A DNA stretch of 48,782 nt from an uncultured Candidatus Saccharibacteria bacterium (GCA_964594965.1 CAZQMX010000003.1:224-49005), one strand, 5' to 3'; counted from the first letter of the stretch, positions 5,856-24,835 are shown. Notes: generated from the sequence alone by a model not told the origin. Translations and numbers: made by a program.

Positions 5856-5974
5856 TTTTTTACAACGGAGGCAATAATGGAGGTTATACTGAATCTGAAC
5901 CGCGGGGCTAGTTACAGACGAGCCCTTTTTGGTTGGAATAAAAAAACCCGTTCAATCATTGGTCAATCAAACCC

Positions 5975-6009: not shown

Positions 6010-6311
6010 ACTTTGAAAATTACAAAACCTATAACTAGATCCCGAGATACTCGGGGTTGGGTCTAGTTTATTCATATCGTTATGAAAGGGTGGTTCTTGC
6101 GTCAGTGAGAGCCCGGCTTCCTCCGTAATCATAGGATAACTGATGTCGTCCCGCCAAGGCGGGAGACTGAGTCGGTAAGTGGTTTTGAATCCGTTTTACT
6201 GACGGATTTTTCCGTTTATATGGGTTCAAAACAAAAAAGGTGGTACCACGGGAAGACCTCTCGTCCTTTTGTCCAAGCTTTGCTTAGACCAAAAGATGAG
6301 AGGTTTTTTTT
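6010..6311 (+). promoter_or_regulatory. T-box riboswitch leader (tRNA-sensing transcription attenuator)
   Basis: AAGGUGGUACCACGG (6237-6251) matches the T-box motif. An antiterminator can be drawn: A1 6235-6240/6265-6270, bulge UGGUACC 6241-6247, A2 6248-6252/6260-6264. A competing long terminator pairs 6255-6278 with 6282-6305 and is followed by U8. Stem I and the specifier codon were not resolved by eye. Confidence 0.7.
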
Positions 6312-6376: not shown

Positions 6377-8839
6377 ATGGTAATAGAGTTGGCAGTCGCA
6401 CAAGACCGCGAACAAGTTGGTGGAAAAGCAAAACGATTATCTTCTTTGATTGGAGCAGGACTTCTGGTGAAAAAAGGAGTGGTTATAACTACCAGTGAGA
6501 TAGAAAACATCCTTGCCACTGGCCGAGTATCGCAAAAGATGCTCGACAAGACTGGTGAGATATTGAAATTTCTAGTAGCCGTTCGGAGTTCTGCCGTCGG
6601 CGAAGACGGCGCGCTAACTTGGGCTGGCCAGTTCAAAACACGCCTCTCGGTATCCTTTGATGCCATAGAAGAAGCAATTCTAGAGTGTGCCAGCGCGGTA
6701 AGCAGCGATGCAGTTAGTGCGTATGCCCAATCGCACGGAGTCGCACGGCCAAAACTTGCTCTTATAATACAAGAGATGGTGAATGCCGAGGTTGCCGGGG
6801 TGCTCTTTACGAAACATCCCATTAACGGTCATGCCGTGGTTATCGAAGCCATTGAAGGCGTAGGAGAATTTCTTGTCTCTGGTCAACGAGAACCGTGCAG
6901 ATTGTATGTAAATCCCGTTTCTCGTGAGGTTGTGAAGGCTGAGGGGGCGAGTATTCCGGTTCTCGGACAGGCCCAGATTGATGAGTTGTGTCGACTTGGC
7001 AAACTCGCCAAAAAAATCTTCGGTAAAGACCAAGATATAGAGTGGGCCATAGAGCGCAACACAGGAACGATATTCCTGCTTCAAAGTAGGGATATTACAA
7101 CACTTAACAGAAAGGGGGAGCAGATGAACATAATCGGTACCGTAAGAAACGTGTTGGATTACGAGACTAGTAGGTTACGACATCTCGGTGTCAATGTCAC
7201 GAAAGATGTGCTAAGCGACCAGAATATTGCGGAATTATTAACGCCACATCCATGTCAAATGGCATTCGGGCTGTTTACATATCTCTTTGCGCATGGCGAA
7301 GGTGCAATTCGTATTGCCCGCAATGAGATGTCGTACGACATCGGTTCTGAGCTTGATATTGGTTTCTTCCATCTGGTCGGTGGACAACCTCGGTGCAGTA
7401 TCGTTCATGATGCGCTAACGTACCGTGTCCGAGGAGTTCCACTTCCAGATTACGCTCAAATGATCCAGTATTATCTCGATCGCATAGAGCAAGATTCGAC
7501 TCTTGCGAACTACCCAGAAGTGGTTCTCTACGACCAGAACCCGTCCGAGAAATTCCTTGTGAGGTTATTTGGTAAGCGCAAAGCTCGACAGTACCGTCAA
7601 GCCTACAATCAATTCTTTGGGAAATTTCGAGAGATTGAAACGACACTCTGGTCTTCGTGCCGCCGCGATTTTCTCAGGAGTTGGCGAGCACGAACCCAAA
7701 GGCAGAGCAAGATAAGCTTTCTGAAAATCCCAGATCTTTGTAAACGGTATGGGGTTGTCGCGAATCTTCTTCGTACCGAGGCTTGCTGCATGTTTGTAAA
7801 GGTGGCGCGGCTTGGTTTTTTTGCCTACGCTCACCTTCGTAATTTGCTCGACGATCTTTTCGGACAAGAAGAGGGAAGACGATACTTAGATATCCTGACG
7901 AGCGGAATTCCTCTTGCCGACAATCCAAATCTTAGATTTAGCGTCGAGTTGGCAAAGATAAGAAACGGCGAGACGTCTGAACAAAAAGTTATCGAAGAAT
8001 TTGGACATCTTGCCATGCATGAGCTGGAAATCTCGGTCCCGCGGTACAGAGAGAACCCAGAAATAATTCGCGTTTTGGCACAACGCATAGCTGATAATCC
8101 ACAACAAGCGATGGAAGAAAGCGTGATGCGAAGCCGCCAACTCAAGGCTGAGCTACTCGCAAAGGCGGGAGCACAAAGTGAAACGTTAGATTATGCAATC
8201 CGTATGGCTCGGGAGTATCTGCCCTTGCGCGAACTCGTAAAATTTGAGTATCTGCGAGGATATGATCTCTTGAGACAGATTGCGCTTCGCATCGAGCGCT
8301 TGCTTAAGTGGGAAGAGGGTTCTGTCTTTCACCTGGATCCGCAGGAAATCTTCGCGTCTAATCAGGATCTTCGCGGTTTTGCTGAGATTGTCGCAAGGCG
8401 CGTCGAAGAACACGAAGCAAACCAAAATCTAATGATTCCGTCCGTCATCTTTTCGGACCACCTAGAGGAAATGGGCCAAGCTCATAGAGTAGAAAACGGA
8501 AAGGTGTTTCGTGGTATTGGAGTTACAGATGTAATTACGGAAGGTAAGGTGGTTGTCGTGCATTCGTCAGATGACAGAGGGGCGATCGCGCGATTATGCG
8601 CAGGGTCAATTCTTGTTACGGTTACAACCGATCCTGCATGGAGTCCAATGCTCTCCGTAGTGGGAGCAACAGGAGGACTGGTCACTGAAGTGGGGGGACT
8701 CCTTGCACATGGAGCAATCTATGCGCGTGAGATCGGCATGGCGGCGGTGCTAAACATCCCCGGTATTACAAAAGTTCTCCGTACCGGGATACGCGTCCGT
8801 GTCAATGGACGCGAGGGAAATGTCGAGATACTCGACTAA
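6377..8839 (+). CDS. PEP-utilizing enzyme with rifampin-phosphotransferase-like architecture (N-terminal ATP-grasp/PPDK_N, helical middle, C-terminal swivel phosphohistidine domain)
   Basis: Blocks GGKAKRLSSL, VAVRSSAVGEDGALTWAGQF and DIEWAIERNTGTIFLLQSRDIT. C-terminus TTDPAWSPML...GGLLAHGAIYAREIGMAAV. No C-terminal TIM-barrel domain. AAAGGAGGA RBS. Visibly higher GC than its neighbours. Confidence 0.8.
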   Translation: MVIELAVAQDREQVGGKAKRLSSLIGAGLLVKKGVVITTSEIENILATGRVSQKMLDKTGEILKFLVAVRSSAVGEDGALTWAGQFKTRLSVSFDAIEEAILECASAVSSDAVSAYAQSHGVARPKLALIIQEMVNAEVAGVLFTKHPINGHAVVIEAIEGVGEFLVSGQREPCRLYVNPVSREVVKAEGASIPVLGQAQIDELCRLGKLAKKIFGKDQDIEWAIERNTGTIFLLQSRDITTLNRKGEQMNIIGTVRNVLDYETSRLRHLGVNVTKDVLSDQNIAELLTPHPCQMAFGLFTYLFAHGEGAIRIARNEMSYDIGSELDIGFFHLVGGQPRCSIVHDALTYRVRGVPLPDYAQMIQYYLDRIEQDSTLANYPEVVLYDQNPSEKFLVRLFGKRKARQYRQAYNQFFGKFREIETTLWSSCRRDFLRSWRARTQRQSKISFLKIPDLCKRYGVVANLLRTEACCMFVKVARLGFFAYAHLRNLLDDLFGQEEGRRYLDILTSGIPLADNPNLRFSVELAKIRNGETSEQKVIEEFGHLAMHELEISVPRYRENPEIIRVLAQRIADNPQQAMEESVMRSRQLKAELLAKAGAQSETLDYAIRMAREYLPLRELVKFEYLRGYDLLRQIALRIERLLKWEEGSVFHLDPQEIFASNQDLRGFAEIVARRVEEHEANQNLMIPSVIFSDHLEEMGQAHRVENGKVFRGIGVTDVITEGKVVVVHSSDDRGAIARLCAGSILVTVTTDPAWSPMLSVVGATGGLVTEVGGLLAHGAIYAREIGMAAVLNIPGITKVLRTGIRVRVNGREGNVEILD

Positions 8840-8910: not shown

Positions 8911-9567
8911 ATGTCAAAAGATTATTCGTTATTTTTCATTCGTCATGGCAAACTACTTTTGCCGTATAAAGATCATAACGAGATGCCGCTTTCAGTGCTC
9001 GCTGATTTAGCGTCCTCAAAATTAAACCCGCCCATTGATTCAAAATTTGCTACTGAATATATTCCTAGATTAGCTAATAAAATACCTTTAGCAAGTGTGA
9101 AAAAAATATACGCTAGTCCTTCGCAACGATGCCAAAATACAGCACAGCTTATCGGCCAATTCATCTTAAAAAGTTATAACAAGAATATCCATATTGTTAT
9201 TCTTCCAGGGTTAAAGGAAATTCATTTTGACTTATTGAAGCTATGTGCGCACAGCGGCGCATCCCAATTAAACATTGAATCTGTAAACAATGCTGTATTT
9301 AAGGCTATGGTTAATGGAAGCGAATACTGCGAATCTGCTGGAAATGCATACCAAAAAATCAACGAACTCCTTGACTCAGATATTGCTGCGGAATCAAGTT
9401 TGTTCATTACCCACGATTTTTTAATGAGAGTTATTGAGATTTATATCGGGCATGGTGGAGCTTCTCGTCATACAATTACTTACGATGAACTACAGAATAC
9501 ACAACGAAACTTGTATCTTCATGGCTTTGCTACTGATTTTGCGCTTGAAGCTTTTCTCTCCTTTTGA
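8911..9567 (+). CDS. Histidine phosphatase (phosphoglycerate-mutase-like) family protein
   Basis: N-terminal FFIRHGK (RHG motif) and later FITHDFLMRV. Confidence 0.6.
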   Translation: MSKDYSLFFIRHGKLLLPYKDHNEMPLSVLADLASSKLNPPIDSKFATEYIPRLANKIPLASVKKIYASPSQRCQNTAQLIGQFILKSYNKNIHIVILPGLKEIHFDLLKLCAHSGASQLNIESVNNAVFKAMVNGSEYCESAGNAYQKINELLDSDIAAESSLFITHDFLMRVIEIYIGHGGASRHTITYDELQNTQRNLYLHGFATDFALEAFLSF

Positions 9568-9756
9568 AATTAGTAGTTGAGAACAGATGAATTTGCTGAA
9601 GTGGAGTACCGCGAGCGAAGTAAACGGTAATCCTCGTCTTTTCAGGAATTCTTGATAAAACAAGTTCGAGCTTGATTCTTGATTGTATAGATGTACCCCA
9701 AATCATTACTTAAACCAATAAAAATCTTGTTGACAGAATCATATTTTTGTATTAGG

Positions 9757-10761
9757 ATGCTACACGAAGTGAAATCCTTAAATAAATATACACAAAAATC
9801 TTTAGGTATTGGCCTGACTTCAAAATGCAATTTAGATTGCCCGCATTGTTATTCAAAAAATTTAACGAAAAAGACTATCTCATTAAAGACTGTCAGAAGT
9901 ATAGTCAAAAAATTTCCTAATTTAAAAAAAGTTAATTTCGGAACGGGCGAAAGCATCTTAAATCCGGAATTGCCAGAGATAATCGATTTTTTTCACTCTA
10001 AGAATATAAAGATAGCTTTGACCTCCAACGGCATTACAGTTGATAAACTGTCTGACGAGTACCTTTTAAAAATTAATGAAGTAGATATATCTATTGATTT
10101 TCCTAATAGAAGGGATCATGATTCCTGGAGAAAAAAAGAAGGTGTTTTTGATGTCGCGATTGGGGCAATTGAAAGATGTAAAAAATTAGGAGTGGAGGTT
10201 TCAATTGCCGCGACTCTGATGAACATAAATCACTCTGTTTTTAGAGGTTTTAAGAAAATACTGGATAAATACAACATATATCTTAGAGTTAATTTATACA
10301 AACCAGTTAATTCTAATGAGTATAGTTTGAGTTATGACCAATTCTGGAAAGCTATTGGAATTATCGCCGATAATTTTACTCTGGTTTCAAATTCTGAACC
10401 GATTATTTCCCTGACATCTCCCTTATCCGTTGATGTCTGTGGTTCTCCTTGTGGAGACTCGGTGCGCCTACATCCGGATCTAAGCATCAGTCCTTGTGTC
10501 TATGTTGACGGCAACAAGGTTTCTGTAGAAAAGTTTAACAAATTAAAAAAGATTATTCCGGATTTTTGCACGAGTTGTAAATTTTTGGAAAAATGTCAGG
10601 GCGGATGTATGAGTAGAAGAATTCTTGAAGACAGAATATATAAACCAGATAGTTATTGTCCTATTTACAAAGAGAATAAAGCACCGGATATAGAGTTTGG
10701 AAAAGTTGAAAAGAAGAATTTTATCCATAGCAATTATTTGTGTACCTTTATTTTAAAATAA
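9757..10761 (+). CDS. Radical SAM / SPASM-domain protein (rSAM-1)
   Basis: CNLDCPHC cluster and GTGESILNP. C-terminal Cys-rich block CGSPCG...SPCVY...CTSCKFLEKCQGGCMSRR...YCPIY. ATG 9757 places CxxxCxxC at residue ~25; the track's alternative start is 9691. Confidence 0.8.
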   Translation: MLHEVKSLNKYTQKSLGIGLTSKCNLDCPHCYSKNLTKKTISLKTVRSIVKKFPNLKKVNFGTGESILNPELPEIIDFFHSKNIKIALTSNGITVDKLSDEYLLKINEVDISIDFPNRRDHDSWRKKEGVFDVAIGAIERCKKLGVEVSIAATLMNINHSVFRGFKKILDKYNIYLRVNLYKPVNSNEYSLSYDQFWKAIGIIADNFTLVSNSEPIISLTSPLSVDVCGSPCGDSVRLHPDLSISPCVYVDGNKVSVEKFNKLKKIIPDFCTSCKFLEKCQGGCMSRRILEDRIYKPDSYCPIYKENKAPDIEFGKVEKKNFIHSNYLCTFILK

Positions 10762-10784
10762 TGAAATCCAGAGGGAGGTGAATT

Positions 10785-11381
10785 ATGGTTAGTAGATTAG
10801 TGGGAATTGTTGGTCCTTCTGGTGTTGGGAAGACCACTATAATTTCCGATCTGGTTGATGTGAAAAAAAAGTTTGAAAGAATACTTTTCTTTACAACTAG
10901 GACAAAAAGGCAATATGAAATTAACGGCAGAGATTACTGGTTTGTTTCCAACTGTGAGATGGACAGACTATTGGCGGATGACTTAGGCATGAGAGAAAGC
11001 TTGGTCGAATTCAACGGCAATCGTTTTGCCATGAGTTATTTCCAAGTCGATCTTTTTCTCAAATCTAATAAGATAGCATTGCTGGAAGTTTACATCACTA
11101 GAATACCCGATCTTAAGAAGAGATATGGAGATAGTTTTCTGGCTTTCTTTCTTTCGCCGCAAACAATTGACACCCTGTGTAAAAGACTAAGAAACTATCG
11201 AGCCCACAAAGAAGATTTTGTTGGGGAAAGAATGAAACAAACCAGAGAAGAATTGGATTCGTTCACCAATAGTTTTAAAGATTTTTTTGACGGATCTATT
11301 ATTTTAAACTCGCATTTGGAAATGGCCAGTAGGCAGGTTGAAAAAGCCATTCTGGAATGCGTAAACAGGTCAAAGACCTAG
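10785..11381 (+). CDS. Guanylate-kinase-like P-loop nucleoside monophosphate kinase
   Basis: GPSGVGKTTI Walker A and TTRTKRQYEINGRDYWFVS (guanylate kinase signature region). GAGGGAGG RBS. Confidence 0.7.
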   Translation: MVSRLVGIVGPSGVGKTTIISDLVDVKKKFERILFFTTRTKRQYEINGRDYWFVSNCEMDRLLADDLGMRESLVEFNGNRFAMSYFQVDLFLKSNKIALLEVYITRIPDLKKRYGDSFLAFFLSPQTIDTLCKRLRNYRAHKEDFVGERMKQTREELDSFTNSFKDFFDGSIILNSHLEMASRQVEKAILECVNRSKT

Positions 11382-11416
11382 AAGGGTGACAATCAAATTA
11401 ATGATTGTCACCCTTC
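11381..11416 (+). other. Perfect 15-bp intercistronic hairpin
   Basis: gaagggtgacaatca, loop aattaa, tgattgtcacccttc. It starts at the last base of the upstream stop codon. No T-run follows. Confidence 0.8.
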
Positions 11417-11427
11417 AATTAAAATTT

Positions 11428-12969
11428 ATGTATTCAGATAAAAGAAAACTGAAGAATTCTAATTATTCTTTTCTGTTTAACGATGGAAAGGAAAATTATG
11501 CCCTTTATCATTCTTTGAGTTGTAATGTTATCTACGGGGGTAAATTATTAAAAAAGATTTTTACCCATTTTCTGGATTACAGTGCTTATAAAGATCTTTT
11601 GGTAAAAAATAAGCGGTCGAAGGAGTTGTTTGAAGCTTTGTGTAAACACGGTTTTATTCTTGAAAACGGTTCGAAAGATGAAAATACATTTAATGATTTG
11701 CGGCAAGAGACAAGAAAAAAGTTCTTTATAAAAACTCTTTATCTGAGTATAACCTACAAATGTAACTTCAGGTGTAAATACTGTATTAGTAATAATTCTG
11801 TGGCTTTGGACAAAAACAAGAGTATTTTATCTATAAGCATGACAGAAAAAGTTGCCAAAGCGGCAGCCGATTTTTATTTAAAAAAAGTCAGAGAAGATGG
11901 GGATAAAGAAGTTGTTTTTTACGGAGGCGAGCCACTGTTAAATTTCAAGGTCATAAAATTTCTGGTTGAGTACATAAATAAAAAAGAACAGTCCAGAATT
12001 TTGAGAAACAAAAGATATAAAAAAAGCAGATATATTCTGTGCACAAACGGCACGCTGATAAACAATAAAATAGCTTTGTTCTTAAAGGAAAAAAACATTT
12101 ATCCAACAGTCACCTTTGACGGCGATAAAGATACGCATAATAAAGTTAGGATATGTGCTAATAAAAAAGGTACCTATAGAGATGTTTTAAAGTCATATAA
12201 GATATTGGAAAAATTTGATTTTCCAATAGGCGTGACCTTAACTTTGGGTAAACACAATATTAACCAGTTGCCAGGTTTTGTTAAGTTGTTCGCTCAAAAG
12301 CTTAATCCTTTTACCATGGCAACAAATATCATGGTTGATTACGATGGAGGCGGAAATGAGTATGTTTGCAATGGAAATATATTGGCCGATAATTTAATAA
12401 AAGCCTTTAAGGTTGCGCGCGGGGAAGGATTATATTTGGTTAAATACATTATGGACAATAGAGTAAAGCCGTTTGTCCAAAAAGATCCGCGATTAAAAGG
12501 TTGTACGGGGACAGGTTCGCGCATTATGGTCCTGCCGGACGGTTCGTTGTCGGCTTGTATGGTCTATGCAAAGAGTTCAAAAACAAAACTAGAGGATAAT
12601 CCCAATCTGGAAGATTTTATTCCTAATGGAATTAAATACTACTCTCCCTTTTTTAAGAACGAATGTAAATCTTGTTTTGCGATTTCCTGTTGCGGTGGTG
12701 GATGTCCCAAAAACGCAGAAATTAAACACGGTACTTTTTTTAGTCTGGATAATGATTATTGCTTACAAAGTAAAAAGTTTTTGGAATGGTTAATTTGGGA
12801 CTTATTTAATTTATTGGATAAACCTCATTGGTCTAGCGAGAGTTTTCTAATTCCCAATGATCAAGACCGCAGAAAGATTTATGGAAAGATAAAGGTGTTT
12901 GAGAATCCGTTGGATTTCCAATATACTCCCAATATTGAATGTAATGAAAAAAAATATAGTAAAAATTAA
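11428..12969 (+). CDS. Radical SAM / SPASM-domain protein with ~110-aa N-terminal RRE/PqqD-like extension (rSAM-2)
   Basis: CNFRCKYC, FYGGEPLL, and SPASM block CTGTGSRIMVLPDGSLSAC...CKSCFAISCCGGGCPKNA...YC. The start is uncertain (ATG 11428, ATG 11401 or GTG 11386) because the hairpin covers 11381-11416. Confidence 0.8.
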   Translation: MYSDKRKLKNSNYSFLFNDGKENYALYHSLSCNVIYGGKLLKKIFTHFLDYSAYKDLLVKNKRSKELFEALCKHGFILENGSKDENTFNDLRQETRKKFFIKTLYLSITYKCNFRCKYCISNNSVALDKNKSILSISMTEKVAKAAADFYLKKVREDGDKEVVFYGGEPLLNFKVIKFLVEYINKKEQSRILRNKRYKKSRYILCTNGTLINNKIALFLKEKNIYPTVTFDGDKDTHNKVRICANKKGTYRDVLKSYKILEKFDFPIGVTLTLGKHNINQLPGFVKLFAQKLNPFTMATNIMVDYDGGGNEYVCNGNILADNLIKAFKVARGEGLYLVKYIMDNRVKPFVQKDPRLKGCTGTGSRIMVLPDGSLSACMVYAKSSKTKLEDNPNLEDFIPNGIKYYSPFFKNECKSCFAISCCGGGCPKNAEIKHGTFFSLDNDYCLQSKKFLEWLIWDLFNLLDKPHWSSESFLIPNDQDRRKIYGKIKVFENPLDFQYTPNIECNEKKYSKN

Positions 12970-13210
12970 AAAGAGATTATCAAGATACGTTAAAATCTTT
13001 GATTTCAAGGACAGCCTTTGTTTTTTTAACTGTTTGTCTCTGAATAAAGCCTATGTTTCAAAGCAGGCGGACTTAAATAGTGACAGGATTCTAAAATTAT
13101 TTGAGAAAAATAACCTTCTGAAAGGGTTTGACTTAAAGGCCAAGAGGTTTATTAAAAAGCGTGGCAGAGAATTTCAAACAATTATACCTAGTTATTTCAG
13201 AAGCATGTAA
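12944..13210 (+). CDS. 88-aa RRE/PqqD-like domain ORF: either the detached N-terminal domain of rSAM-3 or the 5' part of a frameshifted gene
   Basis: The sequence parallels the rSAM-2 N-terminus (LCFFNCLSLNKAYV vs YALYHSLSCNVIY; ILKLFEKNNLL vs ELFEALCKHGFIL; KRFIKK vs RKKFFIK). It lies in frame 2, one frame away from rSAM-3. Confidence 0.5.
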   Translation: MKKNIVKIKKRLSRYVKIFDFKDSLCFFNCLSLNKAYVSKQADLNSDRILKLFEKNNLLKGFDLKAKRFIKKRGREFQTIIPSYFRSM

Positions 13211-14360
13211 TTTTAGTTGTAAGTATTGTCGACAGGTTACACACGGTCTAATAAGGCAGAATGCCATGAAAAGCGGGGAAGCAATAGAAATTATAGATGA
13301 TTTTTTTGAACGAGCAAAAAATAGGCCGAAAGGGATAGTTTTTTATGGTGGCGAACCATTATTAAATAAAAAGGTTCTTTTGGATTCGGTCAAGCACATT
13401 AGGATGAAAGGAAGCAAGTTAAAACCTAAGAGCCCTATTGATTTAACTGTTATAACTAATGGTACTGGAATAGACAAGAAATCGGCGAAAATTTTGAGCG
13501 AAAACGATGTTTATATTATAATCTCGATGGACGGGAGGAAGAAAGAACACGATAAACTAAGGGTTTATAAAAACGGTAGAGGGACGTTTAACGATGTCTT
13601 AAGGGGGTATAAAGTATATAAATCTGCCGGTTGCAAAGTTGGTATTTCTTGCACCATTGGAAGTCATAATTATAGAAGCCTTTTGTCGCTGTTTAATTAT
13701 TTTGCTAAAGACCTTAGACCGATAAATGTCGGTATTAATTTGCCGCATGATGATTATAATAATCCGTTAAATTCGAATATGGACTTCAAAAAATTTTGCC
13801 GGAATTTCTTTAAAATTTTCGAAAGGGCCGTTAAAGATAATTTATATATAGAGCACATTATGAGAAAATTGAGATTACTCTTTAGAGAGGAAATAAAGGT
13901 AAATGATTGCCCTGCTTGTGGTGGAAGGTTGGTCGCTTTGCCTGGTAAAAAGCTGGGTGTTTGCGAAGGCGCTATTGGTATGGATAATTTCTTTTTTAAA
14001 AATATTGACAAGGTCGCCAGAATGTCATCGGACTGGTATTTAACCTCGCCGTTGTTTGATAAAAGGTGCGACAATTGTTTGTCTGTCGGTTTGTGTGGTG
14101 GCGGTTGTCCTTTCGATGGTTATCTACAGACAAAAAAGGTAGGTCATAAAGATAAAAGGAGATGTTCTTTTGTTAAAATGATAGTAAAATGGGGATTATA
14201 TAATTTTTATCTATTAAACAAAAAAAAGATCAAAAATAAGAAGGTCTTTATTCCATCTATTAAAGAACAAAATATCTTTTTAAAGGAACTTAAGGCCACA
14301 AAAGGTAAACTGCCTCTGCGTAGTTCCGCGCGTTTTAGTAAAATAAGGGGTAAATTTTAA
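13161..14360 (+). CDS. Radical SAM / SPASM-domain protein (rSAM-3), catalytic part
   Basis: CNFSCKYC, FYGGEPLL, and CPACGGRLVALPGKKLGVC...CDNCLSVGLCGGGCPFDG. Only a GTG start is available in this frame, which opens at 13137. Confidence 0.75.
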   Translation: MAENFKQLYLVISEACNFSCKYCRQVTHGLIRQNAMKSGEAIEIIDDFFERAKNRPKGIVFYGGEPLLNKKVLLDSVKHIRMKGSKLKPKSPIDLTVITNGTGIDKKSAKILSENDVYIIISMDGRKKEHDKLRVYKNGRGTFNDVLRGYKVYKSAGCKVGISCTIGSHNYRSLLSLFNYFAKDLRPINVGINLPHDDYNNPLNSNMDFKKFCRNFFKIFERAVKDNLYIEHIMRKLRLLFREEIKVNDCPACGGRLVALPGKKLGVCEGAIGMDNFFFKNIDKVARMSSDWYLTSPLFDKRCDNCLSVGLCGGGCPFDGYLQTKKVGHKDKRRCSFVKMIVKWGLYNFYLLNKKKIKNKKVFIPSIKEQNIFLKELKATKGKLPLRSSARFSKIRGKF

Positions 14361-14364
14361 AAAC

Positions 14365-15834
14365 ATGAAAGCAGTTATTTTAGATATTCCAACAACCCAA
14401 GTTTTTACCACGCAGAGGTTTTTAAAGATTGCTAATAATCTTAAAATGTATCGTCTCTATGATCAGAAAATCAATCTGGAAGATAAGTTTAAGATAAAAT
14501 TTTCCAAACCAAACAGTTATTGTCGGGGTCTGCTTTTTATAGCAGCCGTTTTAGAAGAGATCGGAGCTAAAGTTAGTTATTATAATTCCGATTATGATAA
14601 AAAACTTTGGAATAAATGTAAAAAAGAAATAAAAAGAGCAGATTTATTGTTGTCTTCCGCCAAGACTAATAATTACCCGGTTATACTGGAAAAGATAAAA
14701 TTAGCCAAAAGAATTAATAGAGATATCAAAACAATAATTGGGGGTCCTCATCCGACGGCTTTACCAAGAGAGTGTTTAGAAGAAAAGGAAATTGACTTTG
14801 TAGTTTTAGGAGAAGGCGAGGAAACGATAAAAGAACTGGCTTTAAAGTTAATCAATAATCAGGGTGAATTCGAAGACATATTAGGCATAGGATTTAAAAA
14901 AGACGGTAAAGTTCAAGTAAACAAGTTAAGGCCGTTGATTTCAAATCTGGACGATTTACCGATGCCAGCCTATCATTTGCTACCCGGTGGCTTAAAGTCA
15001 TATCATCCGTACATAGATACTTCTAGGGGTTGTATATATGGATGTAATTTTTGCAGTGGACCGGAATATTGGCGGAGAACCATTAGAACAAGGTCATTTA
15101 ATAATTTCTATAAAGAGCTCAAACTGATTAAATCGTTGATTGGAAAATGTAATTTTTTACATATTTCCGATCCAATGTTTGGGGTAACAAGAAAACAATT
15201 TGATATTATTAATAACTTAAAAAGAAAGAGGCATAAACTGTATTTCTCCTGTGATGTAAAAGCTAACTATATTACAAAAGACCTGGTTAAAAAAACGGTA
15301 GATTCCGGAGTGATCTTATTCTCTATCGGGATAGAGTCGTTAGACGATTCGGTTCTGCTTTTGACAAATAAAAAATGTACATCAAAAGTGGAGATAGAAG
15401 CTTGTAGAATAATTAAGGAGTTCAGTGATGTTTTTCTTAAATCCTACTGGATAGTTGGTCTGCCTGGTGAAGACAAAAAATCTTTAAAACACAACAATGA
15501 TCAGGTATATGATTTACTAGATTCGGGCATAGTTGATCAGGTTTGTAATCACATTCTAGTTCCTTATCCAGGAACAAATTTTTTTGGTAATAATAAAAAG
15601 TTTGGCATAGATATTCTGCACAGAGACTGGATTCATTACGAGGGTAGATCTTACCCACCGGTATATAGTCTCAAGGGCTTATCAAGCAATGAAATTTACA
15701 AAGCCTTTTTGCAGGCCGGTAAAAACGAACTGAAATATTATGAAAAAAAATATCCTGAATTATTAAATAAGGCTCAAGGTGACAGCAGGCAAAAGAAGAT
15801 ATCCTTCAGCAAATATAAAGGAAGATTAATTTAG
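14365..15834 (+). CDS. B12-binding-domain radical SAM protein (class B)
   Basis: N-terminal cobalamin-binding-type region (IIGGPHPTALP, VVLGEGEE) followed by TSRGCIYGCNFCSG. Confidence 0.8.
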   Translation: MKAVILDIPTTQVFTTQRFLKIANNLKMYRLYDQKINLEDKFKIKFSKPNSYCRGLLFIAAVLEEIGAKVSYYNSDYDKKLWNKCKKEIKRADLLLSSAKTNNYPVILEKIKLAKRINRDIKTIIGGPHPTALPRECLEEKEIDFVVLGEGEETIKELALKLINNQGEFEDILGIGFKKDGKVQVNKLRPLISNLDDLPMPAYHLLPGGLKSYHPYIDTSRGCIYGCNFCSGPEYWRRTIRTRSFNNFYKELKLIKSLIGKCNFLHISDPMFGVTRKQFDIINNLKRKRHKLYFSCDVKANYITKDLVKKTVDSGVILFSIGIESLDDSVLLLTNKKCTSKVEIEACRIIKEFSDVFLKSYWIVGLPGEDKKSLKHNNDQVYDLLDSGIVDQVCNHILVPYPGTNFFGNNKKFGIDILHRDWIHYEGRSYPPVYSLKGLSSNEIYKAFLQAGKNELKYYEKKYPELLNKAQGDSRQKKISFSKYKGRLI

Positions 15835-15840
15835 AACTTT

Positions 15841-16344
15841 ATGAAAAAGGATAATTATTCAATAATCGAAAAAGAGTTTTTAGCGAAAGGCAAGGACTAT
15901 ACCAAATTGTTTAAATCTGTCTGTTCTGTTGCAGAAGAGATTGGAATGGATAAAGCTTTAGAGTATTTAGAGGAATGTGTGATTCAGAAGAAAGTATTGT
16001 GGCTAGAGGAAAATTTAGGTAGAATCAAAAGAACAAAAAATCCTATAGATGATGTTCTTAAAATATTCTACGAAATTTATCTGGGGATTTCGTTTGGTCA
16101 TAACGGTAAGGTTATTAGAAAAACCGATAAAGAGCTTGTGGTAAGGTGTTGGAACAAATGTCCTGTCTTGAATGCTTGTAATAAATTTGGTCTGGATACT
16201 AAAAAAATTTGCCGTCAAGCTTATCACAGATATGCCGAGGTCTTTCTTTCTAGAATCCATCCGAAATTAAAATTTCAGAGAAACTATAACCGTATTAGGC
16301 CTTATTCGTCTTTTTGCGAAGAAAAAATTATTCTTAAAAATTAG
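15841..16344 (+). CDS. Cys-containing hypothetical protein, possibly ATC-hydrolase-like
   Basis: RCWNKCPVLNACNKFGLDTKKICRQAY resembles, from memory, the Cys pattern of the L-2-amino-thiazoline-4-carboxylate hydrolase family. Weak call. Confidence 0.3.
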   Translation: MKKDNYSIIEKEFLAKGKDYTKLFKSVCSVAEEIGMDKALEYLEECVIQKKVLWLEENLGRIKRTKNPIDDVLKIFYEIYLGISFGHNGKVIRKTDKELVVRCWNKCPVLNACNKFGLDTKKICRQAYHRYAEVFLSRIHPKLKFQRNYNRIRPYSSFCEEKIILKN

Positions 16345-16357
16345 TTATTATAAACAC

Positions 16358-16717
16358 ATGACGACTAAAAATAAATTTACCGATTCAAAGGATTATTTAA
16401 ACAAAGTAGTCAAGGTTAAAATTGACAGGCCTTTAAATTCTAAACACGATAAATTTAATATGATCTATAAAGCCAATTACGGGTTTGTCCCAGGCACCTT
16501 ATCTCCAGACGGAGAAGAGTTAGATGTATATGTTCTTGGTGTAGATAAGCCAGTAAAGGAGTTTATTGGAAAGTGTATTGCAATAATTCACAGAACCAAT
16601 GATAATGATGATAAACTGATAGTTGTTCCCGAAGGATTTGATATTTCGGATAAAGAAATCAGGGATCAAACTAATTTTCAGGAAAAATGGTTTAAATCAG
16701 TAATAATCAGAAAATGA
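16358..16717 (+). CDS. Short inorganic pyrophosphatase family protein
   Basis: YGFVPGTLSPDGEELDVYVLG and NDNDDKLIVVP match family I PPase metal-binding blocks. At 119 aa it is shorter than canonical Ppa. Confidence 0.6.
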   Translation: MTTKNKFTDSKDYLNKVVKVKIDRPLNSKHDKFNMIYKANYGFVPGTLSPDGEELDVYVLGVDKPVKEFIGKCIAIIHRTNDNDDKLIVVPEGFDISDKEIRDQTNFQEKWFKSVIIRK

Positions 16718-16773
16718 CGTTTTCTAACCGTTCGTTTAAAACTGCATAAAGATTAATTCTTGAGGAGGTGTTT

Positions 16774-18066
16774 ATGACTGTTTCGGAGAAAAAGGTTGTT
16801 TTGGGTATAGACTTTGGAACATCCAATTCATCTGCCTCAATTAACATAGACGGCGAGGTAAAATTGGTGGATGTAGACAGATATAGTCTGTCGAACAAAA
16901 AAGTTCTTAGGTCTATTATTTATTTCGACAATGAGGAAAAGAGTTTTTTTGTGGGTCAAAGGGCGATTGAGACGTATATCGAAAACGACGCCTGGGGGAG
17001 ATATATTCAGTCGATCAAGTCATTTTTGCCCGACAAGAGTTTTTCTCGCACCAAGATAGGAGGTAGGTATTATTCCTTAGACGATTTAATAGCCATTATT
17101 TTAAAGGAGATTAAAGGAGCTGGAGAAAGAGATGCCGGACAAAAAATTGAGAATGTTGTTCTTGGAAGACCGGTGTTTTTCTCTAAAGATCCGGATATAG
17201 ACAAATTTGCAGAGAAAGGATTACTGTCAGCAGCGAGAAAGGCCGGATTTAAAAGCATTCCTTTACAGTTCGAGCCTATAGCAGCAGCGCTAGATTACGA
17301 AAGCAAACTTGACAGAGGCGATGAGAAAAATGTTTTAGTGGGTGATTTTGGCGGGGGTACTTCTGATTTCGCAATAGTAAAAGTTACTGGCGGAAAACAA
17401 AAAGAGAGACACGATTGTAAGTCGAATGTGTTATCAATCGATGGTGTCTATATCGGGGGGGACATCTTTGATTCTCAGATTATGTGGGAAAAGATAGCCG
17501 GGTATTTCGGGAAAGATGTTAGAGTAAAGGCATTGATGTCTGACTTTACTCTTGGTATGCCGTCGCCGATAATGAATAAGCTGCGTAGATGGCATCTGAT
17601 TCCTTTGCTTCGAACACCAAGGACGCGCCGTTCTATTAGTGAGATTAAACACCAGGCTGACAGAAAAGATTTAGTCGAAAATCTGGAAAGGTTGGTCGAT
17701 GACAACTATGGATATATGCTGTTTCAATCGATAGAAAAGGCAAAGTGCGAATTGTCGTCGAAAAAAGAAACAGATATATTTTTCAACGGAATTAATCTTT
17801 TCATTAACAAGCATATCACCAGACCGGAATTTGAAGAGATAATCTCAAGAGAACTGAAAGAAATTGATGATTGTGTCGTTTCGACTATACAAAAAGCGGG
17901 TCTTTCTCCGAAAGAGATAGATATTGTTTCTCTTACAGGAGGATCTTCTTTTATCCCGTGCATCAAGAGGATATTTGAAGAAAAGTTTGGCCAGGACAAG
18001 ATAAACCAGACTGATGCTTTTACCAATGTGGCGTATGGTTTGGGTTTGTCTGTGTTACTAACATAA
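16774..18066 (+). CDS. Hsp70/actin-fold ATPase (DnaK nucleotide-binding-domain-like, no obvious substrate-binding domain)
   Basis: GIDFGTSNSSA, VGDFGGGTSDFAIV and LTGGSSFIPCI. GAGGAGG lies 5 nt before ATG 16774. Confidence 0.75.
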   Translation: MTVSEKKVVLGIDFGTSNSSASINIDGEVKLVDVDRYSLSNKKVLRSIIYFDNEEKSFFVGQRAIETYIENDAWGRYIQSIKSFLPDKSFSRTKIGGRYYSLDDLIAIILKEIKGAGERDAGQKIENVVLGRPVFFSKDPDIDKFAEKGLLSAARKAGFKSIPLQFEPIAAALDYESKLDRGDEKNVLVGDFGGGTSDFAIVKVTGGKQKERHDCKSNVLSIDGVYIGGDIFDSQIMWEKIAGYFGKDVRVKALMSDFTLGMPSPIMNKLRRWHLIPLLRTPRTRRSISEIKHQADRKDLVENLERLVDDNYGYMLFQSIEKAKCELSSKKETDIFFNGINLFINKHITRPEFEEIISRELKEIDDCVVSTIQKAGLSPKEIDIVSLTGGSSFIPCIKRIFEEKFGQDKINQTDAFTNVAYGLGLSVLLT

Positions 18067-18146: not shown

Positions 18147-18174
18147 AAGGCCGTGTCAAAAGCACAGCCTTTTA
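18147..18174 (+). terminator. Terminator-like hairpin ending the + strand operon
   Basis: aaggccgtg / cacagcctt (one mismatch) followed by tttt. A second hairpin, 18089-18118 (aagaggggg / ctccctctt), lies just upstream. Confidence 0.5.
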
Positions 18175-19399: not shown

Positions 19400-22300
19400 A
19401 TGTTTAGAAGATATCTAAATTTAGTTTTTTTTATTCTGCCGGCTTTTTTATGGATTATAGCCGGCTTTTTTGTTTTTGCTGATGCCGCTAATTCCCCGCC
19501 GCCAGCCAGTAATTACGCGCCTAATTTATGGTTTGATTCAAGAGAGCAATATTTCCCAACTAATCCTCTGGATTTTTATTATGAGAATGGACAAGAAATT
19601 TCCGGTGAAATCGCTGTTTCAAAGTACAATCAGTTGTCTGTTCAGGACAAAATAAATAATTTAACTGTCTTGTATCATATTGAGGATGAGGGTAATCAAT
19701 GGGTTTATCAATATTGGTTCTTTTATGTTTTTAACGATAATCACAGGGGTGTAAAAAATAAACATTATGGCGACTGGGAATCAGTTTTTGTTTTTGTTGA
19801 TAAAAGCTCGGGCGGGATTAATAAAGTAATTGGCACCGCGCATCAAAGAGAAATTTTTAATACAGAAATTTATAATCCGGAAACTAATCATATTTGGACC
19901 TATATTGGCGAGGGTTCGCATGCTAGTTGTGTAGATAATATTAACGATGGGAGTTGTAATTTTTTAAAATGGATAAAATTCGAAACCTGGGATAAAAAAG
20001 GATCTCAACTTCTACATGATAATTATAATTTGGTAGAAATAAATAGTAATTTTGTTAATAATTTTAGGGGCGTGGCTACTCTGAAAAAATCGTCTGTTTT
20101 AGGGATAAATTTATTTGATTTGGTTGAAGTTAAAAAGTTTGAAGACAAAGAATTATATATTCCCTGGGGCGGGAAGCCGCCAAAGCATGCTTGGGAGCAG
20201 TCAAATTACTATAATCCCGAGGAATTAAGGCCGTATAGTATGAGGTATGCGGCTGACTATATCTCAAACAAATTTAACCAAGCTAAAACACAAGTGGCTA
20301 GTTCATGGGATAATCTGGTTTCCGGCGTAAGTAATATTTTTAAGAAATCAGACCAGTCGGCCGGGATTAGTTCATCTTTACTATCGTTAGAGCTACTGTC
20401 GGAGGTCGAACCTCCGACGGTGTCTGAACTGGAGCTAATAGTCGCGCCAGCGCCGATTCCAGCGGAAGCTTTAGCGGAACTATCGGAGGTTCAACCTCCG
20501 ATAGTATCTGAACTGGTGGTGGAATCAGGTATGAAAGAATTAGCGAAAGAAGAAGAAGAAACAGAGGAAGAATCGGAGGTTGAACCTCCGATAGTAGAGG
20601 AGAAAACAATTGTTAGTTATAGCAGTAGCGGAAGTAGTTCTGCAGACGCTTCTCAGGAAAACGGCGATGAAAGTACGGACGAAACTGCAACTTCAACAGA
20701 GGAAATTGCGACTTCAACCGAAGAAATAATTGAAGAAACCGATACTAACTCACCTATGGCAGTAATTGACTTAAACGCTAGTGCGGGAAATAGTCGAGGG
20801 ACGATTAGTTTATCTTGGACAGCGCCGGGAGATGATGAATCAGTTGGAACTTCAACAGAATATATTATTAAATACGCCACCTCAACTATTGCTTCTTCTA
20901 CCTGGGATTCGGCAATTGATATTTCTGGTGAGCCAGCGCCATTGGTGGCGAGCAGCAGCGAAAGTATGACTATCAGTGACTTAGAAATTAATCAAACCTA
21001 CTATTTCGCGCTTAAATCAAAGGATGAATCTGATAATTTATCAGAAATTTCTAATATTACCAACGCTAGCCCAAGCGCTTTAGGAGACTCCGTTATTATC
21101 AGCGAAATCCAATTAGGAACGCGCGAGTTTGTTGAATTATATAATCCAACTAGTCAGACAATTAATATGACTGGCTGGTACTGGTCGTATTATTCTCCAA
21201 ATAGGAATTGGGATGATCCCTATCGCAATCTGGAATTTCCTGAAGAGGCAAGCATTCCAGCCGACGGATATTATTTAATTGGGTTGGGCAGCGGTACAGG
21301 TGGTTGGTATGATATGGAGTTTGACTGGCGGCCATATGAAACAAGTCAACTCAATAATAGTGTTGGCTCAATCGCTATTTTCCCATGGGATCCGAGCGCG
21401 ACGACTTCCGCCGCAGCGGAGAATAGCGCTATTGACGCGCTTGGCTGGGGAAGTATTGATTATGTTTATAAGGATACCTCTGTTTCAGCGCCAAGTTTAG
21501 AAAAAAGTTTAGTCCGGCAAATAGCTGGTTGGGATACGGATAATAATAGTAATGATTTTATTGAAAAAGATTGGCCTAATCCTAAAAATTCTTCAGGAGA
21601 GAGTTTAACTATTGTTATGGAAGGTACAGAAGTCACAGAAAATAGTACCTGGGACTTATCCGGCAGTCCATATATCCTAGAATCGAATGAAACAAACCAG
21701 CCAATAATAAGAAGCGGTGCAACTTTGACGATTGAGCCGGGAGTGACAATTAAAGGAATTAGCAAATATTATTCCAGTTTGGTCATAGAAGGCGTTTTGA
21801 AAGCTGAGGGAACAAACGCTAGCCCAATCACTTTTACCGGCAATAACGCCAGCTCTAGTCCCGGCGATTGGCTCGGGATTGAGTTTGATAGCGCTGATAA
21901 CGGTTCGGTTTTAGATTATGTTAATTTTGAATATGGCGGTTATTGGCAAGTTTTTCAAGGTTCGGAAGAAATGGTCAGAATTCTTAATAGTTCCGTGACA
22001 ATAACCAATTCTAATTTCGAAAACAGCTTCAAGAACGGAATTTATCTATATAATTCTGACTCCTCTATTTCTGATTCTAGTTTCTCAAGCGCGGAAAAAG
22101 ACATTGTCATTTCCGGTTCCGAGTCCCAGCCAACAATTAATAATTGCCAGTTTAGCGGCAGTATTGGGATAAAAGCATATAACCATTCGTCGCTGACAGT
22201 TAATAATAGCAGTTTTTCTGGTGGTAATTATCCGATAACAATCAGCAGCGCTTACCCGAGTTTAAGCGGCAACCAATCAGATAGCGCTAAGTTAAACGGT

Positions 22301-24666: not shown

Positions 24667-24743
24667 GCCAGCGTAGCTCAGTCTGGCAGAGTGCTGGCTT
24701 CGGAAGCCAGAGGTCGTTGGTTCAAATCCAATCGGCCCGACCA
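24667..24743 (+). tRNA. tRNA-Pro(CGG)-like gene with non-complementary acceptor stem
   Basis: Normal D arm (gctc/gagt), anticodon arm ctggc-UUCGGAA-gccag, T arm gttgg-ttcaaat-ccaat, A73 and encoded CCA. The 5' strand gccagcg does not pair with the 3' strand cggcccg. Confidence 0.5.
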
Positions 24744-24758
24744 ATTCTAATTTAATGT

Positions 24759-24835
24759 GGCGATGTAACTCAGGTGGTTAGAGTTGCGGGTTCATACCCC
24801 GTGGGTCACCGGTTCGAATCCGGTCATCGCCACCA
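24759..24835 (+). tRNA. tRNA-Met(CAU), either elongator-type or Ile2
   Basis: Acceptor ggcgatg/catcgcc, anticodon loop UUCAUAC, T loop ttcgaat, encoded CCA. G1:C72 argues against an initiator. Confidence 0.85.

Follow-up and report, generated by a model that had tools for sequence, protein, structure and literature searches.

A conserved multi-radical-SAM operon of Patescibacteria with a guanylate-kinase-like companion

We analysed a 48,782-nt stretch of DNA from an uncultured Candidatus Saccharibacteria bacterium (hereafter the window, with positions counted from its first letter) and found that the segment 8911-18066 on the + strand holds a real, selected gene set that constitutes one operon. 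This cassette, built around four radical S-adenosylmethionine (SAM) enzymes, recurs in at least six Patescibacteria lineages. The first-pass annotation, made by a model from the sequence alone, had proposed an undescribed maturation or biosynthetic system at this place and had named a lack of conservation in related genomes as what would speak against it; the conservation is there. As to function, we tentatively propose, with a rough probability of 0.4, that the cassette encodes a peptide or protein cross-linking and C-methylation module acting on a substrate encoded elsewhere, joined to a nucleotide-handling module.

Results

Gene content of the operon

Open reading frame (ORF) calling combined with Pfam and NCBIfam profile searches recovered every gene that the first-pass annotation had listed, all on the + strand and at the same positions. 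The first of the radical SAM enzymes, rSAM1, is a small radical SAM/SPASM enzyme (9757-10761, 334 aa; Pfam Radical_SAM) and is followed by a guanylate-kinase-like P-loop kinase (10785-11381, 198 aa; Pfam Guanylate_kin, 84 bits). Next come rSAM2 (11401-12969, 522 aa; Pfam Radical_SAM), in which a putative RRE-like domain precedes the radical SAM core and the SPASM region, its paralogue rSAM3 (12944-14360, 475 aa if intact; Radical_SAM matched on 13161-14360), and a class B, cobalamin-binding radical SAM enzyme with B12-binding and Radical_SAM domains (14365-15834, 489 aa), here called the B12 enzyme. A Cys-rich protein (15841-16344, 167 aa), a family-I pyrophosphatase-like protein (16358-16717, 119 aa; Pfam Pyrophosphatase, 43 bits) and a YegD-like ATPase comprising the Hsp70 nucleotide-binding domain only (16768-18066, 432 aa; Pfam HSP70, 115.6 bits) complete the set, and a histidine phosphatase (8911-9567, 218 aa; Pfam His_Phos_1, E 5.9e-8) stands at its head. 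From rSAM1 on, the intergenic distances are 23, 19, -26 (an overlap), 4, 6, 13 and 50 nt; the widest gap, 189 nt, separates the histidine phosphatase from rSAM1. A motif check detected CX3CX2C together with the SPASM motif CX2CX5CX3C and flanking Cys residues in rSAM1, rSAM2 and rSAM3, whose Pfam Radical_SAM matches exceed the gathering score. The three SPASM-type Cys clusters that had been read from the sequence are thus present, though the Pfam SPASM model gave no match at E<=0.01 among the window proteins.

The rSAM3 gene is interrupted in the window. Its two pieces, a 103-aa ORF (12899-13210) and a 399-aa ORF (13161-14360), make up one 475-aa gene. Alignment with L009, an otherwise identical contig from the same organism (Joint Genome Institute sample 3300009105), and with L011 located an 11-bp deletion between positions 13170 and 13171 that splits the gene; the 11 bases extra in L009 after window position 13170 are ATTTAAACCGG, lying between ATTT repeats. 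An intact 475-aa rSAM3 is called in L009 and L010, and L011 has Ns at the deletion site. The break is real at the strain level, as a frameshift or pseudogene, or else results from an assembly slip at the short ATTT repeat. Because the two ORFs belong to one deletion-split gene, the operon has nine genes, not the ten that had been counted at first; the tight packing claimed along with that count is borne out, the 189-nt gap excepted.

Downstream, the Hsp70-like gene and an 84-aa ORF on the minus strand converge on a GC-rich, terminator-like hairpin of nine pairs (18147-18171, - strand). The operon probably ends there, but the hairpin is a hint at most, since terminator-like sites in the region are no more frequent than expected from shuffled sequence.

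The gene set is kept across Patescibacteria lineages

Relatives were collected with the Cys-rich protein, rSAM1 and rSAM2 as probes, followed by context look-ups, collection scans and synteny mapping by BLASTP. All eight conserved genes are found in L001/L002, at 44-75% identity to those of the window. L006 carries rSAM1 through the Cys-rich protein, with a NUDIX hydrolase at the pyrophosphatase position, after which the contig ends. In L013/L038, three inserted genes follow rSAM1 and precede the kinase, rSAM2, rSAM3, the B12 enzyme and the Hsp70-like protein (38-64%). L042 has all eight parts at 28-59% identity, with the pyrophosphatase relocated upstream and a divergent first radical SAM enzyme. 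The order in L045/L046 is kinase, rSAM2, rSAM3, B12 enzyme, NUDIX hydrolase and rSAM1, followed by an ABC exporter, and the short contig L044 contains the kinase, rSAM2 and rSAM3. The flanking genes differ in every lineage; it is therefore the gene set itself that is kept, not a chromosomal region.

Five genes form the invariant core: rSAM1 (or a substitute), the guanylate-kinase-like kinase, rSAM2, rSAM3 and the B12 enzyme. In five of the six lineages, either the mini-pyrophosphatase or a NUDIX hydrolase occupies a pyrophosphohydrolase slot. Four of six also have the Cys-rich protein (the window, L001, L006 and L042, but not L038 or L045), and four of the five lineages whose contig is long enough have the Hsp70-like protein. 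Identities of rSAM2/rSAM3/B12 enzyme to the window proteins run in parallel from locus to locus, at 72/69/71, 65/67/62, 61/61/61, 49/50/52 and 46/45/46%, so these three enzymes co-evolve as a unit. The values for rSAM1 (75, 51, 64, 28 and 49%) and for the Hsp70-like protein (44, 38 and 37%) do not track the trio.

rSAM2 and rSAM3 resemble peptide maturases

The two paralogues are 28% identical (BLASTP, E 2e-43), and their leading curated matches are all peptide maturases, namely FibroRumin, PapB, SCIFF, nif11-type and QhpD. In NCBIfam, rSAM2 scores 159 bits against FibroRumin (cut-off 400), 141 against PapB (340) and 127 against SCIFF (425), while rSAM3 scores 128 and 118 bits against the FibroRumin and PapB models, with the same cut-offs of 400 and 340. 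The solved sequences nearest to rSAM2 in a PDB sequence search are CteB (8e-29) and 8vpo. Residues 16-106 of an AlphaFold2 model of rSAM2, with a mean predicted local distance difference test (pLDDT) value of 90.3, form a beta-beta-beta-beta-alpha-alpha-alpha arrangement, the order expected of an RRE, the recognition element of ribosomally synthesized and post-translationally modified peptides (RiPPs). Foldseek ranks TigE and CteB highest for this model, with 466-489 aligned columns versus 379 for anSME, which lacks the domain. An RRE-like N-terminal domain in rSAM2 is thus well supported by the predicted structure. In rSAM3 the domain is shorter and is related to that of rSAM2 only at an hhalign probability of 79%; the early assignment of such a domain to both enzymes is supported for rSAM2 and, less clearly and in this shortened form, for rSAM3. 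Taken together, rSAM2 and rSAM3 look like peptide maturases in sequence and predicted domain order, and rSAM2 also in predicted structure.

The C-terminal tail of rSAM2 (residues ~485-510) is predicted to be disordered (pLDDT 31-58), and the pattern P..R.K.YG.I.V...PLDFQY.P within it is invariant in nine orthologues. The tail may be a docking motif.

The B12 enzyme is a probable C-methyltransferase

The B12 enzyme matches PF02310 at 70.3 bits (gathering score 32.1) and PF04055 at 60.5 bits, with a CX3CX2C motif at residue 223. Its NCBIfam scores are 121 bits for BchE (cut-off 481), 110 for HpnJ (578), 104 for ApyD (750) and 101 for the methyl-coenzyme M reductase glutamine methyltransferase MJ_0865 (360), and it stays under the curated cut-offs for all of these as well as for PhpK and BzaD. 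The solved structure nearest to it, 9ccb (64 bits), is identified in published papers as MgmA, the methyl-coenzyme M reductase glutamine C-methyltransferase. The matches suggest that the B12 enzyme is probably a C-methyltransferase.

A kinase and an exchangeable pyrophosphohydrolase

The kinase aligns over its full length with TIGR03263 at 98.6 bits (cut-off 160.45) and, aligned to the Plasmodium guanylate kinase 2qor, retains both the GPSGVGK P-loop and the TTRxxRxxExNGxDYxFV motif of the GMP site. Judged by alignment it is guanylate-kinase-like, with fold and motifs retained and an NCBIfam equivalog score that is not reached. It was found in L001, L006, L038, L042, L044 and L045.

The 119-aa pyrophosphatase-like protein is a reduced version of its family. 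The Pfam match spans positions 30-113 of 153 and the NCBIfam score is 34.5 bits against a cut-off of 200; the central, metal-binding motif YxANYGFxPxTLxxDGxxLDV (the DxxxxD region) is retained, and the N- and C-terminal segments are absent, so that the protein falls short of a full family I pyrophosphatase domain of ~170 aa with its complete catalytic set. In L006 and L045, a NUDIX hydrolase takes the equivalent position. The mini-pyrophosphatase and the NUDIX hydrolase thus fill one slot interchangeably.

The Cys-rich protein and the Hsp70-like ATPase

The Cys-rich protein matches no Pfam or NCBIfam family. Among 19 related proteins, 45-70% identical, C46, C107, C113, C124 and C159 are invariant. 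Its AlphaFold2 model (pLDDT 94.9) matches Bet3, H-NOX and the MopR sensor domain with a Foldseek probability of ~1 and template-modelling (TM) scores of 0.45-0.60; these folds bind lipid (Bet3), heme (H-NOX) and aromatic compounds or phenol (MopR). The modelled fold and the conserved residues suggest that the protein probably binds a small molecule or cofactor and has a Cys metal site. Homologues of ~53% identity occur in unrelated surroundings, with no radical SAM genes, in L003, L005 and L007. We considered whether the Cys-rich protein might itself be the substrate of the pathway and rejected this, given its confident ligand-binding fold, its absence from L038 and L045 and its homologues elsewhere without radical SAM genes. 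As a separate observation, the homologues in L003 (10001-10834) and L005 (10001-10964) are followed by a conserved 96-aa protein and an MFS transporter.

The Hsp70-like protein scores 201 bits on the YegD-type model PRK11678 (cut-off 331) and 113 on DnaK (648). Both Pfam HSP70 and the DnaK matches in PDB cover the nucleotide-binding domain only, so the substrate-binding domain and lid are absent. YegD has likewise been described as a nucleotide-binding domain only (PMC13580251). The gene lies beside the cluster in L001, L038, L042, L015 and L017, but not in L045, and a UvrD-like helicase gene follows it in both L001 and L015.

rSAM1 belongs to a widespread family with nucleotide-handling neighbours

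Searches of NCBIfam and of PDB sequences found no close characterised relative of rSAM1. Its best curated matches (GeoRSP, MftC, AhbC, NirJ and MoaA) score 44-75 bits, with MftC at 67 against a cut-off of 265, and its PDB matches, led by GDGT-MAS and including SkfB and BlsE, are limited to the radical SAM core. Its family is well conserved, with an invariant C-terminal H-x-x-Y-L-C-T in the alignment; of 1.84 billion representative clusters, 251 belong to it at E<=1e-30.

A scan of GTDB species genomes, in which the ORFs of 25 loci were clustered, revealed the wider contexts of rSAM1. In other Patescibacteria (L015, L016/L049 and L017/L039), it occurs with a dTMP kinase, a deaminase-family amidohydrolase, in some cases a B12 radical SAM enzyme, a NUDIX hydrolase and in some cases the Hsp70-like protein; the dTMP kinase there scores 128 bits, above the housekeeping cut-off of 83. 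The unassigned contig L041 combines an HD hydrolase, rSAM1, an HprK-like P-loop protein, an amidohydrolase, methyltransferases and two long SPASM enzymes. In Zixibacteria, Calditrichaeota, LCP-89, Riflebacteria, Omnitrophota, Clostridia and others (L018-L027, L036, L037), rSAM1 stands immediately ahead of one or two SPASM enzymes that share 25-30% identity with rSAM2/rSAM3, and the usual companions are two class-I methyltransferases, a B12 radical SAM enzyme, a Mo oxidoreductase, a sugar-epimerase TIM barrel, an inositol-phosphate-cytidylyltransferase-like enzyme and a CDP-alcohol transferase-like protein. The closest rSAM1 relatives (~50% identity; L014-L017, L041) adjoin P-loop kinases, NUDIX or HD hydrolases and a nucleoside or base deaminase, and in L020 an rSAM1 of ~37% identity adjoins a 471-aa protein with a guanylate-kinase domain. 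The unit of rSAM1 and long SPASM enzymes is therefore old and widespread, and its companions time and again handle nucleotides or nucleotide-activated groups, with the reservation that the dTMP kinase scores above its housekeeping cut-off.

In L016/L049, a 70-aa Cys-rich peptide gene (containing CGTCACKCACRY) lies 69 bp before the gene for a 464-aa distant relative of rSAM2, which scores 400.8 on the FibroRumin maturase model (cut-off 400); the pair follows directly after an rSAM1-NUDIX unit. Relatives of rSAM2 with a normal linked precursor therefore exist, and the window cassette is without one. This FibroRumin-type RiPP pair, from the Patescibacteria metagenome-assembled genome UBA6220, is the same in both contigs (L049 10981-11193 and 11262-12656, corresponding to L016 11948-12169 and 12241-13632). 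It looks bona fide, with the 70-aa precursor ending in CGTCACKCACRYNDVPGDNPFDK, and just upstream of it lies a 77-aa Cys-containing ORF bearing a signal peptide.

Two further observations concern these related loci. Several non-Patescibacteria phyla share a conserved ten-gene cluster (L019, L022, L024-L027, L036, L037; ~5.6-16.8 kb in L025) that comprises rSAM1, two SPASM enzymes, two methyltransferases, a sugar-epimerase TIM barrel and an inositol-phosphate-cytidylyltransferase-like enzyme together with a BzaD/ladderane-like B12 radical SAM enzyme, a Mo enzyme of PhsA/Fdh-like type and a protein resembling archaetidylinositol-phosphate synthase; it has weak matches to NCBIfam DVU_1551 and DVU_1556 and appears uncharacterised. 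The Falkowbacteria contig L039, which carries a related rSAM1 cluster, also contains a group I intron (82 bits) at 1495-1720 on the - strand.

Surroundings of the cassette

Some of what had been regarded as part of the system is confined to the lineage of the window. The translated histidine phosphatase contains the RHG motif, and its best NCBIfam match is CobC alpha-ribazole phosphatase at 33.8 bits (cut-off 162.9), but it is not beside the cluster in L001, L006, L038, L042 or L045 and is not part of the conserved cassette. Upstream, an 820-aa rifampicin-phosphotransferase-like gene of PPDK_N/Rph_4th/PEP-utilizers composition (6377-8839) is preceded by a T-box-like leader (6022-6271, + strand). 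The leader is a full-length match with the GGUGGUACC box, at 41.9 bits against an Rfam gathering score of 93; the T-box seen at first thus looks real in extent and motif and falls below the Rfam threshold in score, and a T-box in front of the phosphotransferase gene is plausible. A phosphotransferase of the PPDK_N/PEP-utilizer type is an unusual T-box target. The histidine phosphatase and the T-box-controlled phosphotransferase were both seen in the window's own lineage only, and the earlier description of them as unusual companions of the radical SAM enzymes falls away with their place outside the conserved set. Directly upstream of the operon, no riboswitch or leader was found in the window or in nine related loci.

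Base composition does not set the cluster apart either. Its GC fraction is 0.339 versus 0.392 in the rest of the window, a modest difference within the range of 0.26-0.485 spanned by the other window genes, and the Hsp70-like gene, at 0.396, is at background level. A low-GC island is therefore not supported, and the AT-richness noted at first is slight and not distinctive.

Several features near the cassettes were recorded in passing. A tRNA-Asn(GTT) gene lies directly 5' of the cassette in two lineages with otherwise different flanks (L001 3689-3762; L038 9695-9769), with four tRNA-like genes in a run at this site in L038; this adjacency was not seen in the window, L042 or L045. In L045, a 90-nt direct repeat, 96% identical (5881-5970 and 9058-9147), begins at the 3' end of a tRNA-Lys. 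Between its copies, a short way ahead of the radical SAM cassette, lie genes for a ribonucleotide reductase, a HAD phosphatase and a NUDIX hydrolase. We set these genes aside as extra nucleotide companions: they are repeat-bounded and probably a separate insertion. In the window, an IS200/IS605-type Y1 transposase gene (22781-23452) lies ~4.7 kb downstream of the operon and adjoins a gene for a 1111-aa LTD/beta-helix surface protein (19400-22735), and a second tRNA (24672-24734; Rfam, 48 bits), on which ARAGORN is silent, lies just upstream of tRNA-Met (24759-24835).

Discussion

A proposed peptide or protein modification module joined to nucleotide enzymes

Our comparisons establish that the three co-evolving core enzymes look like peptide or protein modifiers, and that relatives of the second module accompany nucleotide enzymes. 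In the tentative reading that we put forward at the outset, rSAM2 and rSAM3 would recognise a peptide or protein segment through their RRE-like domains and install radical cross-links of the thioether or C-C type, as do their relatives CteB, PapB and TigE, and the B12 enzyme would C-methylate an unactivated carbon, as MgmA does on a protein. The substrate would be a peptide or protein encoded at another site in the genome, a situation known from the enzymes that modify methyl-coenzyme M reductase. A second module, made up of the kinase, the pyrophosphohydrolase and rSAM1, would either supply a nucleotide-derived group or process a phosphorylated intermediate. The Cys-rich protein may act as a ligand or cofactor carrier and the Hsp70-type ATPase as an ATP-driven helper. 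Hsp70-fold reactivases exist for B12 enzymes, and we may speculate that this ATPase and the ligand-binding protein support the cobalamin enzyme.

Several observations weigh against a peptide or protein substrate. An all-against-all comparison of small ORFs (15-130 codons, outside large genes) found none conserved in seven cassette loci and their 10-kb flanks, a Cys-density scan found no Cys-dense small ORF in the cassette loci, and the intergenic small ORFs of the whole 48.8-kb window included no plausible precursor candidate. Comparison of small ORFs across three cluster types returned only off-frame matches inside real genes, tRNA artefacts and one GIY-YIG gene. The operon has almost no intergenic space, and the 189-nt gap, the sole one long enough for a gene, contains no conserved ORF. 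No leader protease was found near any locus, and an exporter stands beside the cluster in one lineage only (the ABC exporter of L045), with none in the window; the first-pass annotation had likewise seen no precursor, protease or exporter, and L045 is the sole locus to depart from it. Neither rSAM2 nor rSAM3 has a Pfam PqqD match. In other phyla, moreover, rSAM1 and SPASM enzymes with N-terminal domains lie in clusters that resemble small-molecule or lipid-headgroup pathways and have no peptide gene; because these clusters look that way, the N-terminal domain may not bind peptide in this clade.

The missing precursor and the small-molecule look of the clusters in other phyla are the grounds for a different, nearly as likely though equally tentative explanation, a non-peptide pathway. 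Here the four radical SAM enzymes would modify a small molecule that is phosphorylated or activated by a nucleotide, for instance a nucleoside-derived metabolite, a cofactor or a scavenged lipid or headgroup; the kinase and pyrophosphohydrolase, with the phosphatase in the window lineage, would set its phosphorylation, the Cys-rich protein would carry a hydrophobic or cofactor-like intermediate, and the RRE-like domains would have been repurposed. Such a pathway would fit the invariance of the kinase, which lies 19-23 nt from its neighbours, the interchange of pyrophosphatase and NUDIX hydrolase, and the lack of precursor, protease and conserved exporter at the loci searched. It would also fit the neighbours of the rSAM1 relatives, which include thymidylate/guanylate-type kinases, NUDIX/HD hydrolases and a 5'-deoxyadenosine/guanine-deaminase-family amidohydrolase and, in other phyla beside rSAM1 and a SPASM pair, methyltransferases with cytidylyltransferase-like and CDP-alcohol transferase-like enzymes, although the thymidylate kinase of the related cluster, at 128 versus 83 bits, may simply be a bystander and no pathway gene. 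In the PDB, rSAM1 finds its best match, limited to the core, in the lipid enzyme GDGT-MAS, and the fold of the Cys-rich protein recurs in Bet3, which binds lipid, in H-NOX, which binds heme, and in the MopR sensor, which binds phenol. Nucleotide-linked substrates of B12 radical SAM enzymes have precedents in Fom3 (cytidylyl-hydroxyethylphosphonate) and OxsB (deoxyadenosine phosphates). Opposed to all this are the maturase-like sequence, domain order and predicted structure of rSAM2/rSAM3, the protein substrate of MgmA, the structure nearest to the B12 enzyme, and the Patescibacteria version of the cluster itself, which has no sugar, lipid or nucleotidyl-transfer enzyme. The first-pass annotation had offered both a peptide route that uses nucleotide or phosphate chemistry and a non-RiPP small-molecule pathway, and the evidence splits almost evenly between the two. 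An elaborated form, which we consider slightly less likely still, would make the cassette a peptide-independent pathway of ~8 kb in which three SPASM enzymes with repurposed RRE-like domains and the cobalamin enzyme rebuild a nucleotide-activated metabolite, the kinase and pyrophosphohydrolase control phosphorylation, and the Cys-rich carrier and Hsp70-type ATPase assist. The product would represent a new class of nucleoside- or nucleotide-derived metabolite or cofactor, and other phyla would have redeployed the trio of rSAM1 and SPASM enzymes towards a lipid or cyclitol-phosphate headgroup.

A peptide substrate might still have its gene close by, a short or fast-evolving one that our searches missed, in which case this would be an ordinary RiPP cluster. 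The enzymes are maturase-like, their L016/L049 relative has its 70-aa Cys-rich precursor adjacent, and an ABC exporter adjoins the L045 cluster; but searches down to 15-18 codons in seven loci with their 10-kb flanks yielded nothing conserved or Cys-dense, the flanks differ between lineages, and the single gap that could fit a gene holds no conserved ORF, all of which makes a missed precursor quite improbable. A somewhat less remote, though still improbable, view is that the neighbourhood is partly accidental, with functional radical SAM genes standing among housekeeping genes (gmk, ppa, DnaK-like). The Hsp70-like gene speaks for this view: it is at background GC (0.396), missing in L045, only 37-44% identical between lineages, below the core genes, and in both L001 and L015 precedes one and the same UvrD-like helicase. 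In the related cluster type, the thymidylate kinase close to rSAM1 also passes its housekeeping cut-off. Yet the Hsp70-like gene is adjacent in six loci despite changes of order and orientation, the kinase lies within the operon between radical SAM genes in six lineages and scores well under the guanylate kinase cut-off, and the pyrophosphatase is cut down to 119 aa and exchangeable with a NUDIX hydrolase. Least probable is an anti-phage island, in which a radical SAM enzyme would make an antiviral nucleotide analogue fed by the kinase, as in prokaryotic viperin-kinase pairs. rSAM1 does adjoin a nucleotide kinase, PADLOC gives weak pVip model matches (52-57 bits), L001 and L038 have a tRNA-Asn immediately 5' of the cluster, and L049 has a type I restriction system nearby. 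Against this, rSAM1 scores 44 bits versus 180 on viperin NF038283, the matches cover the radical SAM core only (pVip model positions 6-192), PADLOC calls no system and gives only generic radical SAM matches, a scan of viral contigs gave no more than one 23% relative, PHROGs gave generic matches and none specific to phages, and the viperin scheme has no place for four radical SAM enzymes that carry SPASM and B12 domains.

Significance

Patescibacteria have tiny genomes with little biosynthesis, and an operon with four oxygen-sensitive, cofactor-hungry radical enzymes must therefore be important to its hosts. Maturase-like SPASM enzymes in constant company with a nucleotide kinase and a pyrophosphohydrolase are not a feature of any RiPP or cofactor pathway described so far. 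If the modification of a protein substrate that we favour is correct, a new post-translational modification would come to light in a phylum still unexplored. If the substrate is instead nucleotide-linked, RRE-bearing SPASM enzymes would be unreliable RiPP markers, and an uncharacterised radical SAM family of 251 representative clusters would be opened up. Since the operon is short and complete, it is directly testable by heterologous expression.

Comparison with known systems

No enzyme of the cassette reaches the curated NCBIfam cut-off of a characterised family, be it anSME, PQQ, mycofactocin, heme d1/Ahb, SCIFF, PapB, FibroRumin or viperin; the models tested were FibroRumin TIGR04136, PapB NF047865, SCIFF TIGR03974, QhpD TIGR03906, anSME TIGR03942, MftC TIGR03962, AhbC/AhbD/NirJ and MoaA, with anSME scores, for example, of 79-87 against a cut-off of 349. 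The partner genes of the sulfatase maturation, PQQ, mycofactocin, heme d1/Ahb, SCIFF and ranthipeptide systems are likewise absent. With matches far under the cut-offs and partner genes lacking, orthology to a characterised pathway, which the first-pass annotation had singled out as what would overturn its proposal, was not found. Literature searches on this gene combination, on radical SAM and SPASM enzymes of Patescibacteria or the Candidate Phyla Radiation, and on YegD, V4R and DVU_1551/1556 found no account of the cassette. Uncharacterised multi-radical-SAM clusters are common in metagenomes.

The nearest likeness is to CteB (SCIFF), PapB (ranthipeptide), the FibroRumin maturase and TigE, which share with rSAM2/rSAM3 the predicted order of RRE-like domain, radical SAM core and SPASM region with two auxiliary clusters. 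In contrast to them, the cassette has no adjacent precursor, protease or dedicated exporter and always pairs two maturase paralogues with a B12 enzyme, a third SPASM enzyme and a kinase, and rSAM2/rSAM3 score 118-159 bits on the SCIFF, PapB and FibroRumin models, whose cut-offs are 340-425. PqqE/PqqD, MftC/MftB and QhpD/QhpC likewise combine a SPASM enzyme with an RRE-type domain and a peptide or small-protein substrate. The MftC and QhpD models match the cassette enzymes weakly, far under their cut-offs, and PqqA, MftA, QhpC-like and other pathway genes are lacking here. MgmA/QCMT and Mmp10, which modify methyl-coenzyme M reductase, set the precedent for C-methylation, by a B12 radical SAM enzyme, of a residue in a protein whose gene lies at another place. 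The nearest structure is MgmA, but the B12 enzyme reaches just 64 bits to 9ccb and 101 versus 360 on the family model, and the host is not a methanogen.

Prokaryotic viperin-kinase pairs, Fom3 and OxsB resemble the cassette in that a radical SAM gene stands beside one for a nucleotide kinase or phosphohydrolase. rSAM1 differs from viperin in having SPASM and lacking the viperin C-terminal region (44 bits versus 180), and the window has no cytidylyltransferase or HD partner. The rSAM1 clusters of Zixibacteria, Calditrichaeota, Omnitrophota and other phyla share the succession of rSAM1 and SPASM enzymes (25-30% identity), often with a B12 radical SAM enzyme, but lack the kinase, pyrophosphatase, Cys-rich protein and Hsp70-like protein of the Patescibacteria cassette. 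We consider that the cassette is best filed with the radical SAM/SPASM maturase clusters, among which it is distinct by its obligatory kinase and pyrophosphohydrolase and by having no linked substrate gene.

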